DNA of 64,000 nt from a plasmid. The position numbers and the translations under genes were made by a program. The notes under the pieces are model-generated. The model saw only the letters and a program-made list of their open reading frames with translations. It was not told the origin of the DNA and did no database searches. The stretch lies in sequence record CP113993.1. One strand, given 5' to 3'. Every line of letters starts with the position of its first letter. Position 1 is the stretch's first letter. Positions 13,291-57,737 of this stretch are shown piece by piece.

Positions 13291-14499
13291 TCAGAATTCG
13301 TTGTCTGTAGCAGGTGTACGGGGCAGGATGTCGTCGGTGAGGGACCAGTTGGTCAGGATGCGGCGTTTCCGGTCGCGATCTGGTTGTGGTTCATCCCAGA
13401 TAAGACCGAGACTGAGCATATCCCGCCGTAAGCCTTCCACCGCTTCATCAACACAGGGTTCAGGGCAGGGAAGGCCAAAACGCATGGCTTCGGCCTCTGC
13501 ACGTGCAACGGCCACCACGCCAGCGCCTTCAATAAATCCTTTCGTGGTATTGGCGCGGTGTAATGCATAAAACAGCGTTCTGTCCACGCCTTTCAGCCAA
13601 ATCCAGTTGGGTGGCGTAAGCCGCAGGTCATGTGCATACAGCCAGACCAGCCCACTGCGGACGTAGCGATGTTGTTTCAGCCATTGCTGTGCTCCGTTGC
13701 TTTTAATCACTCTCTGGAAAGCTGATTTGGCCAGTGAATAAACAGGGGTACAGAATTTCCCGCTGTCCCGTTTGCTTTTAATTCTGCATGAGAGGTTCAG
13801 TGTATCCATGAGCTTTAATGCTGCCTTACGATCATCCAGGAAATACTGAAGGCCAAATATGGCAAAGAGCGCTTTTTCATGTGGTGCCATGTCTTTCCAG
13901 GACGTTAAAGGTTTACCCAACTGGGCCATGAAACATCGTCTTGCAGCTGCAACATCGAGCTGCATATTGGTGATGAGAGTATGCTGTTCGACAAATGCTT
14001 CCGGGGTGAGAGCAACCCGCCGTTCAGGTCGTTTGCCACCATGAAAGAGTTTTTCCGGATCACCATCTGCCAGTACAGGGGCGATAGCAGGGGACAACGA
14101 AGCAAAGATGTGTGGCAGTCGGGTAATATCTACTGGTCTGCGGGTGAAACGACTTTGTCCCGGATGTTGATACCACTCCCACAAACACCAGAGTGTCACA
14201 GGTAAGAGGTACATCCACAGAATACCTATGGTCTGCTCCATGACGTTAACCCACTGGCTATAGCTTATGTTGGCGGCGTTGTTACCGGTCATGGCAAGCA
14301 GGTTGTATCGTGGTGCTGCATAGTTATGAAATGGTCCCCAGTCAACCAGTCCCCATAAGGTATGAAGAATCAGGCAGCTGGCGTAAACCACTTCCGGCAA
14401 GAATAACCATATGACGAATAGCAGCAGGATAAGAAGGACACCAACAGCGCCCCATATCTGCATAGGATCTTCTGCGACAGGCTGTCGATTGTAAGACAT
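13291..14499 (-). CDS. trbA: inner-membrane transfer protein TrbA (DotM/IcmP-like position), 402 aa
   Basis: Several hydrophobic helices. Position follows trbB. Confidence 0.6.
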   Translation of the reverse strand: MSYNRQPVAEDPMQIWGAVGVLLILLLFVIWLFLPEVVYASCLILHTLWGLVDWGPFHNYAAPRYNLLAMTGNNAANISYSQWVNVMEQTIGILWMYLLPVTLWCLWEWYQHPGQSRFTRRPVDITRLPHIFASLSPAIAPVLADGDPEKLFHGGKRPERRVALTPEAFVEQHTLITNMQLDVAAARRCFMAQLGKPLTSWKDMAPHEKALFAIFGLQYFLDDRKAALKLMDTLNLSCRIKSKRDSGKFCTPVYSLAKSAFQRVIKSNGAQQWLKQHRYVRSGLVWLYAHDLRLTPPNWIWLKGVDRTLFYALHRANTTKGFIEGAGVVAVARAEAEAMRFGLPCPEPCVDEAVEGLRRDMLSLGLIWDEPQPDRDRKRRILTNWSLTDDILPRTPATDNEF

Positions 14500-14600
14500 G
14501 ACAAAGTCTCCATTTCTGGAATTTAAATCAAACGGAAAGGTTAAAATTTATTTTCAGGCGATAAGATCTAACCAAAGGAATTGGCCGTGCGATAAAAGGG

Positions 14601-14640
14601 TTGTTGCAAATACGAAAATTATTAGAATAGCTGCGGGCGC
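14601..14640. repeat. 40-bp imperfect direct repeat (left copy) flanking the AT-rich 302-aa gene
   Basis: TTGTTGCAAATACGAAAATTATTAGAATAGCTGCGGGCGC versus 15787..15826, 34 of 40 identical. Confidence 0.55.
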
Positions 14641-14760
14641 TTGAGGTTGTATGCCGAAGCGTTTTGTGGACGGTATACAGCAGAAACCCCTTGGAAATTT
14701 ATTATCAATCAACTAACCAAGGGATCTTCTGTAACTACTGTTCGCTATACCGAGTATTAG

Positions 14761-15669
14761 TTATGCTGTTTGTCTTGTTTCAATAATGTCTAAATATTTT
14801 TTATATGTTTCAGAAGTGGTAGTTTGTCCTTTGGCATTTGAAATTACATTATTCACAATAGTTCTTATCATGTCATCAATAAGTTCTAACAAATTTTCTG
14901 CCATGATTCCAGTAAACTCATTACATTTAATATATGTTATATTGTTATTTTCTAATAATTTGGCTGCCCCTATGCTTCCTTTGTTTGTGAATTTCATTCC
15001 ATTTATATCAATTATCTCACCAGTGTTGTTGGTTTCATTTAAATCACTTGAAATCAATGTTTTAAGTATTGAATCTTCAAGCATAAAACATTGATCTTTT
15101 GTGAAGCTAAGGAAAAGATTACTTTTGCATTTATCATCGCTAGTGTTTGATAAAGGGGCGTAACAAAAAGTCATTGAGTTGTGTTTTATATAGTTGTTTA
15201 AAGTGAAAACAATATCATATTTTCCTTCAATTATAGTCTCTATAGACTTATCAAATAAATCATGGCATTTTTTTAAATAAATTTCATTATCAATGCTGGT
15301 AGATTTGATAAGAATACCGATCTCATATTTTGAAAATAGTGCTGATTTTGCTTTCTGATAACCATCTTCACCGCACTTATTTTTAAACTTACTAAACCAT
15401 GGTCTTTGTGGGGGGGTGAGTGTCGTACCAATGATAGAATAGATGATATAAGGGAGATAGTATTCTGCTAGTGCTGCTGAATTATTTATGACAGAATCAA
15501 AAAAATATTCGCAGTCAGGTTCTACATAGTTTGTGTATCGAGGTCTGTTTAGTGATGTAACGAATTTTTCACGAAAAAATAGAAGCTTCTCTATCTGATG
15601 CTTTAAGGATATTTCATAGAGAGACTTTGTGGATACTTCTGCATCTTCATATTCAGGTAATAGTGACAT
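14761..15669 (-). CDS. AT-rich hypothetical protein (302 aa), probably horizontally acquired cargo
   Basis: Long ORF whose base composition is far below the backbone (very A/T-rich codons). Flanked by 40-bp direct repeats. No recognisable motif. Confidence 0.6.
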   Translation of the reverse strand: MSLLPEYEDAEVSTKSLYEISLKHQIEKLLFFREKFVTSLNRPRYTNYVEPDCEYFFDSVINNSAALAEYYLPYIIYSIIGTTLTPPQRPWFSKFKNKCGEDGYQKAKSALFSKYEIGILIKSTSIDNEIYLKKCHDLFDKSIETIIEGKYDIVFTLNNYIKHNSMTFCYAPLSNTSDDKCKSNLFLSFTKDQCFMLEDSILKTLISSDLNETNNTGEIIDINGMKFTNKGSIGAAKLLENNNITYIKCNEFTGIMAENLLELIDDMIRTIVNNVISNAKGQTTTSETYKKYLDIIETRQTA

Positions 15670-15786
15670 TTTTAAACTCCATAATATAAATACATTTGAT
15701 CGTTCAAAACGATACTTATAATTAAAGAGCAGTTAGTTCATTAGAACCGAGCTGTAATGTAGCACATCACAATGCTTCGGCAAAGA

Positions 15787-15826
15787 TTGTTGCAGATACG
15801 AAAGCCGTTAGAATAGCTGCGGGCGG
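15787..15826. repeat. 40-bp imperfect direct repeat (right copy)
   Basis: TTGTTGCAGATACGAAAGCCGTTAGAATAGCTGCGGGCGG. The GCCGAAGC and GCTTCGGC motifs beside the two copies are mutually inverted. Confidence 0.55.
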
Positions 15827-16300
15827 GGTAATTATCGAACTGAGTGCGCCATTCTTTTCAGGAGACGGCAAATTAGAGATGGTTGGTTCAGGTTCAGAGC
15901 ATGAGTTTCCTGGTGTGGCGGACATGCCGGGGTGGATTTTGCAGAGATAACAGATGTAAAAAAACCGACTGGTGAGGTCGGTTTTTTTACTGTTCCGCTA
16001 CAGAGTTGGTGACTCTGGACGGGAAAAGACAGTCTGTATCTAACATGATCAATTCTATGCTTTGTCCCGCACTATGTCAAAAATCCTGCTAATCAAGTAG
16101 TATACAAAACGTTAGCTCTACTGATTGTCTGAACTCGACAACTGACGGATTTGTTAAGTCCTGGCCGGGATAACAGGTGGTGCTGCTTCCGGTGCTCTGG
16201 TCGGAGTGAGGCAGTCTGTATCTAACAATAGAGACAACCGTAGTGACAGGCAGCCCATGAGTAAGCTGCGGTGTTTCGCTCCCTTATCAAGGGAAAACGG

Positions 16301-16396
16301 ATGATTAATCTGTTAATCATCGTTCTCAGGGCAGTAGTTGCCGTTGCAAACGCGCTGATTGCTGTTCTGGAACTGATCCGGGAACTTGTCGACTGA
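16301..16396 (+). CDS. 31-aa hydrophobic peptide MINLLIIVLRAVVAVANALIAVLELIRELVD, candidate DinQ/TisB-like type I toxin
   Basis: Small ORF with an upstream AGGGAAAA. Resembles E. coli DinQ (MIDKAIIVLGALIALLELIRFLLQLLN, quoted from memory). A hairpin terminator follows at 16421..16452. A tandem 16-bp repeat lies upstream. Confidence 0.45.
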   Translation: MINLLIIVLRAVVAVANALIAVLELIRELVD

Positions 16397-16420
16397 TAAG
16401 CCTGGAAACGTAACTAAGGG

Positions 16421-16452
16421 CAGGGAGTTACCGCTTCCTGCCCTTTAACAAA
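16421..16452. terminator. bidirectional intrinsic terminator hairpin (GGGCAGGGAG-loop-CTTCCTGCCC flanked by T/A runs)
   Basis: Inverted repeat seen between the convergent small ORFs. Confidence 0.5.
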
Positions 16453-16460
16453 AAGAGATC

Positions 16461-16637
16461 TCACGTTAAAAATTTGTACCCTTCTTTAACTTCCAGTGCC
16501 TGCTCCTTTGACTCAAACATCAGTCTTGTTTTCCCGGGAACGCCCCATGAAATGTATTCAACATCTATCCACCATTTTCCATATTCTTTATATGGCCCGG
16601 ATATTACTTTTTTGACAAAGGCGTCTACCAGATTCAT
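16461..16637 (-). CDS. hypothetical small protein (58 aa from the internal ATG; RBS AAGGAA)
   Basis: ORF 16461..16745. The MNLVDAF start is preceded by AAAAAGGAAAAAACA. Confidence 0.35.
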   Translation of the reverse strand: MNLVDAFVKKVISGPYKEYGKWWIDVEYISWGVPGKTRLMFESKEQALEVKEGYKFLT

Positions 16638-17028
16638 TGTTTTTTCCTTTTTATTTTGAAAATAATTAATGCCAGAGCACAGCGAAAATAATGAATGCGC
16701 TGGCTGTGATAATTGCGATTTTCTCCCATATGATATTTTTCTCATAGGGGTTTCTACGGAGATTATTTCTTCGCATTGAGATACCGGTATTCATGTTTTA
16801 TCTTGGACTTTTGTTTTGTTGTCTGTCTGGCAGGCTGTTCTGCGCCCGTTTGTGACAAGGTTAGCTTATGGGGTTAAATGGTCACGGACATCATGCGGAC
16901 GGTTCCCTGTCACATGCCATCTGGTTTTTTCATTCAAATTGAGAGATATTGCTAAGTTGAGTCGCTTGCGATAGTGGACTCCTGTTTGTAAGTGAGTGCC
17001 ATTGTTTATTTCATGAAGAGGATTGATT

Positions 17029-57428: not shown

Positions 57429-57470
57429 GCTATCACCGAGTTCCTACGCTCATTGGTGATAGCCCAGACG
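57429..57470 (-). terminator. intrinsic terminator/attenuator hairpin (9-bp stem GCTATCACC/GGTGATAGC followed by a T-run) in the leader of the LuxR-type gene
   Basis: Perfect inverted repeat plus GTTTTTAG in the minus-strand sense. Confidence 0.45.
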
Positions 57471-57737
57471 GGGGTAGGAATACCGGCGTCATCGGAAACC
57501 GGCCAGGCTAATGCCTGCCCCGCCTGAGCTACCATAGATGACGACAAGAAATACAAGTTCCTGTCTTTATGGTATGGCAAAAAACGACGCCAAATGAAGA
57601 AATTAACTTCTGCGCCGACGATGACTACGCGGGTTCCTACGCCCGATCACAGTTTTGCCTGTGACCAGTAAAGGGTACTTAGTATAACGCACCGAGTCAA
57701 CTAACAGCTTAAAAAACATACAAAAAAGCGTCAAAAC

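Follow-up and report, generated by a model that had tools for sequence, protein, structure and literature searches.

The stretch of plasmid DNA analyzed here (64,000 nucleotides (nt) of sequence record CP113993.1, hereafter the window, to which all positions refer) carries at 15956..16450 what is very probably a complete dqlB–agrB module, a type I toxin–antitoxin system of the dinQ family for post-segregational killing, on a conjugative plasmid of IncI-gamma/K1 type. Direct analysis of this copy established to which families the two genes belong, how the locus is built, that the antitoxin is complementary to its cognate target and that this complementarity co-varies. A first-pass annotation of the same DNA had proposed a plasmid-borne type I toxin–antitoxin at this site, and the proposal holds: the toxin and the antitoxin pass the DqlB and AgrB family models, respectively, and homologous modules are toxic and neutralized by agrB (PMC12365149, PMC12317039). 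The coordinates of the features are collected in Table 1.

The toxin gene and its peptide

The open reading frame (ORF) at 16301..16396 on the plus strand is translated as MINLLIIVLRAVVAVANALIAVLELIRELVD, the same 31-residue peptide that had been read there in the first pass. The NCBIfam equivalog model NF041473, "DinQ-like type I toxin DqlB", aligns residues 1–31 of the peptide with profile positions 1–31 at 67 bits against a cut-off of 35, and the equivalog model of DinQ itself, NF041472, gives 20.7 bits, which is below its cut-off of 30. The peptide is identical to RefSeq WP_001303310.1, annotated as dqlB on the plasmid NZ_CP024292. A BLASTP comparison with K-12 DinQ, VIDKAIIVLGALIALLELIRFLLQLLN, the sequence that the first-pass annotation had given correctly, yielded 12/24 identities with an E-value of 9e-5. 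Judged by these matches, the peptide is a DqlB-type relative of DinQ and not DinQ proper. The DinQ-like membrane peptide that had been suggested is thus borne out by the DqlB equivalog model, together with homology of the whole mRNA to dinQ (see below). The close resemblance to TisB that was also claimed is generic only, with no TisB family match returned at E ≤ 1 in the NCBIfam search with the peptide.

The number of variable sites per codon position among 16 distinct homologous coding sequences (11/4/23) indicates that the dqlB ORF is translated and under purifying selection. A 41-residue version initiated at a GTG (16271) is disfavored, as both the family model and RefSeq begin at the ATG after the Shine–Dalgarno (SD) sequence; longer N-termini of dql peptides have been described as mis-annotations (PMC5066626). 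The peptide is identical at 25/31 residues to DqlB of a pOXA-48-type IncL plasmid (locus L005) and of an IncX3 plasmid (L006). Pfam holds no model for it (sole match DUF6486, E 0.46), tblastn found no DqlB in phage genomes, and no further dqlB, agrB or Hok was found elsewhere in the 64-kb window.

The antitoxin gene agrB

The Rfam family RF02891 (AgrB) matches the minus strand upstream of dqlB over the full length of the model (1–84), with 57 bits against a gathering threshold of 40 and an E-value of 4e-8. The small RNA (sRNA) aligns with both K-12 agrA and agrB, and it folds into an internal stem-loop and a terminator that leave the 5′ seed free (z = −5.7). Its promoter agrees with the consensus at 11/12 positions and is the only strong sigma-70 site that a consensus scan found in 15850–16500. 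We therefore find an agrB gene that is predicted from its sequence to be transcribed from its own promoter to its own terminator, with a 5′ end that could begin 1–3 nt further upstream, at 16044–16046. The terminator could act in both directions, because the palindrome has A/U runs on either side. The first-pass annotation had expected an antisense RNA like those of agrA/agrB from the upstream repeat; the AgrB match on the opposite strand agrees with this, but there is a single agr gene and no tandem pair.

Complementarity between AgrB and the dqlB leader

Two direct repeats lie upstream of the toxin ORF, the second of them in the 5′ untranslated region (UTR), as had been noted in the first pass. 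The copies at 16013–16045 and 16195–16227 match at 27/33 positions and are spaced by 182 bp. The 16-mer CAGTCTGTATCTAACA, from the 3′ part of the repeat and common to both copies, occurs exactly twice in the window against 0.02 occurrences expected from shuffles. Both repeats run in the same direction and agrB is transcribed from the other strand, so its sRNA is antisense to the 5′ UTR copy. An antisense sRNA acting on this copy had been envisaged, and the AgrB match on the opposite strand and the homology of the mRNA to dinQ both speak for it. For the duplex between agrB and its target, an energy of −51.3 kcal/mol is predicted, with an uninterrupted run of 18 pairs that begins at the agrB 5′ end; among the 15 antitoxins tested on this target, its own agrB is the best.

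The specificity of this pairing was assessed in a 15 × 15 duplex matrix covering K-12 and 14 plasmid loci, in which every locus was represented by the agr gene closest upstream. Seed/target duplexes of cognate pairs averaged −54.7 kcal/mol versus −35.6 ± 8.7 kcal/mol for non-cognate ones, and the cognate antitoxin ranked first at 9/15 loci, the window among these. Seed and target change together: the variants are CAGTCTGTATCTAA in the window, TCTCTTTTCAACTAA in L009 and CTGTCTATAACTGA in L004, and in each case the agrB of that locus matches. DqlB is identical in the window and L009, yet their seeds differ, each being matched to its own target. The seed/target sequence of the window is unlike that of all other compared loci.

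In an IncK2/Z plasmid (NZ_CP141231, L013 801..1107), the dqlB 5′ UTR is joined straight to an agrB copy and DqlB is cut to 27 residues. This fusion apparently arose by deletion between both direct repeats, which indicates that the repeats can recombine.

The dqlB transcript

The positions of the dinQ elements (PMC5066626) were applied to the K-12 sequence and then carried to the window through alignment. Window 16085–16460 is 77% identical to the K-12 dinQ transcript, including the stem-loop SL2, the agrB target, the SD hairpin and the terminator. The putative dqlB start was placed by homology with the mapped +1 of dinQ, the G of CCAGTTAGCTC, whose position follows from PMC5066626. The dinQ +1 transcript is 331 nt long. 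A weak putative dqlB −35 element, ATGTCA at 16074–16079, overlaps the −35 of agrB on the opposite strand.

The minimum free energy (MFE) fold of the dqlB mRNA has −135.6 kcal/mol (z = −5.0), with the 5′ leader paired to the target region and the SD hairpin closed. In both the MFE and the centroid structure, the 5′ "lock" (16111–16139) pairs with 16200–16226, so that the agrB target is masked in the primary transcript, and sequence 2 with it. A 20-sequence alignment analyzed with RNAalifold has compensatory changes at 26/68 pairs, located in SL2, the SD hairpin and the terminator. The SL2 helix (columns 77–83/115–121) shows them at most pairs, in 4–7 sequences, and the SD hairpin co-varies in the family at columns 214–219/227–232. 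The predicted unpaired probability of the SD sequence is 0.03 in the full-length RNA, 0.11–0.26 in the 5′-truncated RNA and 0.02 with the agrB target blocked. In the modeled ensembles these probabilities shift in the direction that the dinQ model predicts, and the effect is modest.

The start codon lies inside a perfect 9-bp hairpin, 16300..16320 (GAUGAUUAA-UCUG-UUAAUCAUC), which is kept in 20/20 homologues; in dinQ it shows one compensatory change. In all modeled states the probability that the AUG is unpaired is just 0.02–0.04, and the hairpin may form an extra barrier to translation.

At the 3′ end, the G+C-rich terminator stem pairs G16418–G16427 with C16434–C16443 in the MFE fold, is extendable to 16416..16446 and is followed by UUUAAC. 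Its pairs co-vary among homologues (for example, AU:9/GC:8 at one pair), and a simple terminator scan missed it because its U-run is short. The hairpin terminator described after the ORF in the first pass is real, but its coordinates were slightly off (16421..16452).

Table 1 Features of the dqlB–agrB locus and its surroundings in the window.
Feature	Position	Strand	Basis
pnd (Hok/Sok) remnants	14400..14765 and 15782..15825		Leader, sok-like match, duplicated segment
302-residue orphan ORF between pnd breakpoints	14761..15669	-	ORF call
agrB antitoxin sRNA gene, ~88 nt	15956..16043	-	Rfam RF02891, fold, K-12 agr alignment
agrB intrinsic terminator	15956..15990	-	14-bp stem, 7-nt loop, U-run; inverted repeat 100% complementary
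Direct-repeat copy 1, DNA of the agrB 5′ antisense (seed) segment	16013..16045	.	Repeat search
agrB promoter, TTGACA / 17-nt spacer / TAGAAT	16052..16080	-	Consensus scan
Putative dqlB promoter, −10 TAGTAT (16098–16103), start G16111	16098..16111	+	Homology with mapped dinQ +1
dqlB mRNA, predicted full length ~340 nt	16111..16450	+	K-12 dinQ homology, fold
5′ "lock" (sequence 1 / stem S1 of the dinQ model)	16111..16139	+	MFE and centroid fold; model PMC5066626
Putative counterpart of the dinQ +44 processing site	about 16150	+	Alignment transfer
Conserved 5′ UTR stem-loop SL2	16164..16193	+	Fold, RNAalifold
Direct-repeat copy 2, agrB target in the dqlB 5′ UTR, contains sequence 2	16195..16227	+	Repeat search, duplex prediction
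Sequence 2, GGAGUGAG	16203–16210	+	Inside agrB target
Sequence 3, UUCGCUCC	16275–16282	+	Folds, dinQ alignment
SD hairpin UCCCUU-AUC-AAGGGA; SD GGGA at 16291–16294	16280–16294	+	Folds, co-variation
dqlB toxin ORF, 31 residues	16301..16396	+	NF041473 match, RefSeq dqlB annotation, codon-position variation
dqlB terminator hairpin	16416..16446	+	Fold, compensatory changes, dinQ terminator homology
Small convergent ORF right after the dqlB terminator	16461..16745	-	ORF call

Proposed mechanism

By analogy with dinQ, the module would work as follows. A weak rightward promoter would give rise to the dqlB mRNA of ~340 nt, and this primary transcript should be translationally inert, because the leader 16111–16139 pairs with 16200–16226 and the SD sequence is held in its hairpin (16280–16294). 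Removal of the first ~40 nt would free sequence 2, which could then pair with sequence 3 and loosen the SD hairpin, so that the 31-residue hydrophobic helix is translated, enters the inner membrane and exerts its toxicity. Meanwhile, agrB would be transcribed leftward from its near-consensus promoter, and its single-stranded 5′ end would pair with 16195–16227, block the 2:3 pairing and close the SD hairpin again. In a plasmid-free cell, agrB, which is presumably short-lived, would no longer be made while the structured dqlB mRNA persists, and the cell would therefore die. Toxicity, rescue by agrB and killing upon plasmid loss are established on homologues. We infer the start site, the processing step, the half-lives of the RNAs and the membrane target of this copy.

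Points against a functional module, and the possibility of decay

Several points weigh against this interpretation. The dqlB promoter is a poor match to the consensus and was uncalled by the promoter scan, and the start and processing sites of dqlB are putative, placed by alignment alone. The MFE structure of the truncated RNA keeps the SD hairpin closed, and the predicted opening is modest. The co-variation of the 2:3 helix is weak and does not clearly exceed that of slid controls, with 83.8% of cells paired versus 78.7% at the slide −3 control. As RNA, the 27/33 repeat amounts to three mismatches and three G-U pairs and so falls short of the near-perfect match of K-12 agrB/dinQ, although the 18 pairs counted from the agrB 5′ end are uninterrupted. 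In the literature searched, there is no experiment on an IncI or IncI-gamma dqlB allele, and DqlB was undetected in proteomics of the IncI plasmid pTF2 (PMC12211044).

One alternative is a decaying, non-functional remnant, in which the ORF and the sRNA are still recognizable but the toxin is unexpressed or the pair no longer interacts, as with pnd nearby. The toxin gene of the adjoining pnd module is already gone, and dqlB itself has decayed in relatives: L003 and L021 are without the toxin but keep agrB, and L011 and L013 have shortened versions of 27 residues. The weak dqlB promoter and the imperfect complementarity distal to the seed would also fit. Against this, the ORF is intact and the same allele occurs in many plasmids, with 287 records at least 99% identical over their best matching stretch to a 601-nt query. 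No RNA element is missing from the set of lock, SL2, target, SD hairpin, start-codon hairpin and terminator. In addition, agrB has a near-consensus promoter, and the cognate duplex is the strongest of the 15 tested. We regard decay of the locus as very unlikely.

SOS control

The other alternative is an SOS-regulated module like chromosomal dinQ, in which LexA would bind CTGTATCTAACAATAG (16216–16231) or another operator and the peptide would serve as a damage-response effector and not in addiction. Its homologue dinQ is indeed LexA-controlled (PMC5066626), a formal CTG-N10-CAG is found at 16161–16176, and for the IncI plasmid pTF2 a LexA site with a heterology index of 11.64 has been predicted in the corresponding SL2 region (PMC12211044). 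In the window, however, the dinQ operator TACTGTATGATTATCCAGTT, which overlaps the −10 and +1 of dinQ, falls in a 15-nt alignment gap, and there is no credible LexA box because this operator is missing from the dqlB promoter. We scored the region with a heterology-index matrix built from a set of LexA boxes, which is approximate and has the dinQ operator in its training set; on this scale CTGTATCTAACAATAG scored 17.9, the SL2 motif 19.5 and the dinQ operator 3.3. No site in 15900–16460 scored below 16; in the window, 52 positions do. Both motifs fall within the transcribed region, the SL2 motif near +51 and CTGTATCTAACAATAG near +106, and RNA constraints account for both: the first belongs to the SL2 stem, the second to the antisense target, which co-varies with agrB. 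The first-pass annotation had seen a relative of a LexA box near the ORF. The motif is present at 16216..16231, but it has TAG where CAG is essential, other sequences stand there in relatives, in step with agrB, and the motif is intratranscript with the promoter operator missing. On the absent operator, the low-quality scores and the RNA constraints, LexA/SOS control was rejected as highly improbable, and the plasmid location of dqlB implies addiction rather than an SOS function.

Alleles of the regulatory core

The window was compared with L009, L019 and L004, which are few loci. The regulatory core, 16014–16287, takes in the agrB seed, the promoters of both genes and the 5′ UTR together with its target and SD hairpin, and is just 26–77% identical among them. 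Its flanks are nearly invariant, with 92–95% identity in the 3′ half of agrB and 96.5–97% in the toxin ORF and 3′ UTR, and the peptide is identical or nearly so. Predicted pairing across the three core alleles is 11–28 kcal/mol weaker than cognate pairing, and because of this weaker cross-pairing the alleles may represent orthogonal specificity types. We tentatively suggest, at somewhat less than an even chance, that dqlB–agrB of IncI1 and IncI-gamma plasmids comprises at least three co-diverged regulatory-core alleles of orthogonal specificity, by which related plasmids would keep independent addiction. Such core alleles are not described in the dqlB/dinQ literature searched, and the allele structure around a nearly invariant toxin ORF is possibly a new point.

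Two IncI-gamma/K1 plasmids, pNDM33-2 (L021 2630..3336) and NZ_CP029110 (L003 1671..4336), carry three agrB-like genes with three seeds, which correspond to the window, L009 and L004 types; the L004-type gene scores 37.7 bits, just under the gathering threshold. Both plasmids are without dqlB, the equivalent of window 16097–16449 being cleanly deleted, and an extra sok-like copy lies amid their agrB genes. These sets are perhaps orphan antitoxin arrays and, as part of the tentative suggestion above, could serve in anti-addiction. Core alleles and orphan arrays of this kind would be relevant to the ways in which related plasmids escape or make use of one another's addiction systems.

Distribution and prior work

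The plasmid NZ_CP024292, of IncI-gamma/K1 type and conjugative (MOBP, MPF_I), differs from the window by 5 mismatches in 12,601 aligned bases and carries dqlB between trbA and excA/traY. The 601-nt region around the locus matches 1,641 PLSDB plasmids, and at least 5,000 plasmids were matched by a sensitive BLAST search. From these groups 19 loci were retrieved, on IncI1, I-gamma, K2/Z, L/M, X1, X3, X4, N, HI2 and F plasmids. AgrB is upstream and divergent at most of the 19, in 1–3 copies. At the IncL/M, IncN and IncFIC representatives (L005, L016, L017 and L018), no Rfam AgrB was found at E ≤ 0.01; agrB has been reported for pOXA-48 (PMC12365149).

The dql (dinQ-like) genes dqlA and dqlB of Enterobacteriaceae chromosomes and plasmids were defined by Kristiansen et al. 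in 2016 (PMC5066626), who also described the four-element RNA switch of dinQ/dql. In 2025, dqlB–agrB of the IncL plasmid pOXA-48 was reported to be toxic and agrB-neutralized, and targeted degradation of the plasmid led to killing that was rescued by agrB (PMC12365149). In that study, 67.4% of IncI1 plasmids and 83.2% of IncB/O/K/Z plasmids carried dqlB. The module of the IncX3 plasmid pOXA-484, also reported in 2025, is toxic, agrB-neutralized and stabilizes its plasmid (PMC12317039). The window locus is an ordinary copy of this already known and annotated system, and was correctly recognized in the first pass. It adds little as a finding, because the gene is named, modeled in NCBIfam and annotated by RefSeq on the same backbone, and addiction is established on two plasmid groups. 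Its value is one of annotation, with relevance to curing strategies against IncI-type resistance plasmids.

Comparison with known systems

With the plasmid modules of IncL and IncX3, the window locus has in common that both family models, NF041473 and RF02891, are passed, and it shares their architecture of a divergent upstream agrB, a target in the 5′ UTR, a 31-residue peptide and a rho-independent terminator. It differs from the validated pOXA-48 and pOXA-484 modules in being an IncI/IncI-gamma allele with its own seed/target sequence, and in the absence of the neighboring pnd toxin gene.

The chromosomal dinQ–agrA/agrB locus of K-12, in the arsR–gor intergenic region, is alike in its mRNA (77% identity), in its homologous sRNA and in having the same four-element 5′ UTR switch, SD hairpin and terminator. 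The differences lie in the peptide (27 residues in DinQ versus 31 in DqlB, with 12/24 identity), in the two agr genes of K-12 as against one in the window, and in the LexA operator, which the dinQ promoter has and the dqlB promoter lacks. In dinQ, pairing of the agrB type at the target also directs RNase III cleavage.

TisB–IstR-1 likewise combines a small hydrophobic inner-membrane toxin with a trans-encoded sRNA acting on the 5′ UTR, and its inert primary transcript is likewise activated by 5′ processing. TisB is LexA-regulated, and no sequence relationship between TisB and DqlB was detected. The pnd/pndCA system (Hok/Sok) of IncI1 and IncB plasmids is also of type I, occupies the same trbA–excA interval and is expected to cause post-segregational killing, but its toxin family and its RNA are unrelated to those of dqlB–agrB.

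Remnants of pnd and neighboring genes

The first-pass annotation had further supposed that the module replaces the Hok-type pnd of this interval. This did not stand, since relatives of IncI1 and IncI-gamma type carry Hok/pnd, a hypothetical gene and dqlB in that order; replacement was rejected on the synteny in L004, L009 and L019 and on breakpoint analysis. A dqlB gene does occur at the pnd region of IncI1 plasmids, where the peptide had been thought worth seeking: in pEC24-3, dqlB is annotated beside Hok/Gef, the full order being trbA, finQ, Hok/Gef, hypothetical, dqlB, hypothetical, HEAT-repeat gene, excA and traY. In the IncI-gamma loci L009 and L019, a Hok/Gef gene is likewise found beside the dqlB locus, and DqlB of L009 is identical to that of the window. 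Both systems are present in these relatives, with pnd ~0.8 kb upstream of dqlB. On sequence evidence, dqlB is the usual neighbor of pnd and not its substitute, and pndA was lost separately here.

The breakpoints of this loss are visible in the window. Positions 14400–14734 match the pnd leader, and homology returns at 15826, in sequence that relatives have 3′ of a 252-nt gene. This gene and the adjoining Hok/PndA ORF are deleted in the window. A truncated sok-like Rfam match at 14635..14765 reaches 36 bits, below the gathering threshold of 59, and tblastn turned up no Hok-like ORF across the whole window, its best match having an E-value of 1.3. With pndA gone, dqlB–agrB is therefore the only type I toxin–antitoxin module detected in the window. 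A 44-nt segment is duplicated at 14596–14639 and 15782–15825 with 84% identity.

Between the breakpoints lies an ORF of 302 residues with 28–34% GC in a backbone of ~50% GC. Searches of Pfam, NCBIfam and PADLOC gave no match for its product, which is not similar to FinQ, and the gene occurs in just 17/72,556 PLSDB plasmids, always annotated as "hypothetical protein". Its location in the finQ slot of IncI1 plasmids suggests a rare cargo gene, possibly with a defense or fertility-inhibition function. For the small convergent ORF behind dqlB, RefSeq has at the equivalent of 16461..16637 a 58-residue hypothetical protein, WP_001054904.1, which is kept beside dqlB in IncI plasmids; the only Pfam match of this ORF is sub-threshold (Bact_hydrolase, E 0.047). 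Far from the module, at 57452..57539 on the minus strand, a C4 antisense RNA was identified by Rfam RF01695 with 77.5 bits against a gathering threshold of 45, a family known from the immunity regions of P1/P7-type phages.

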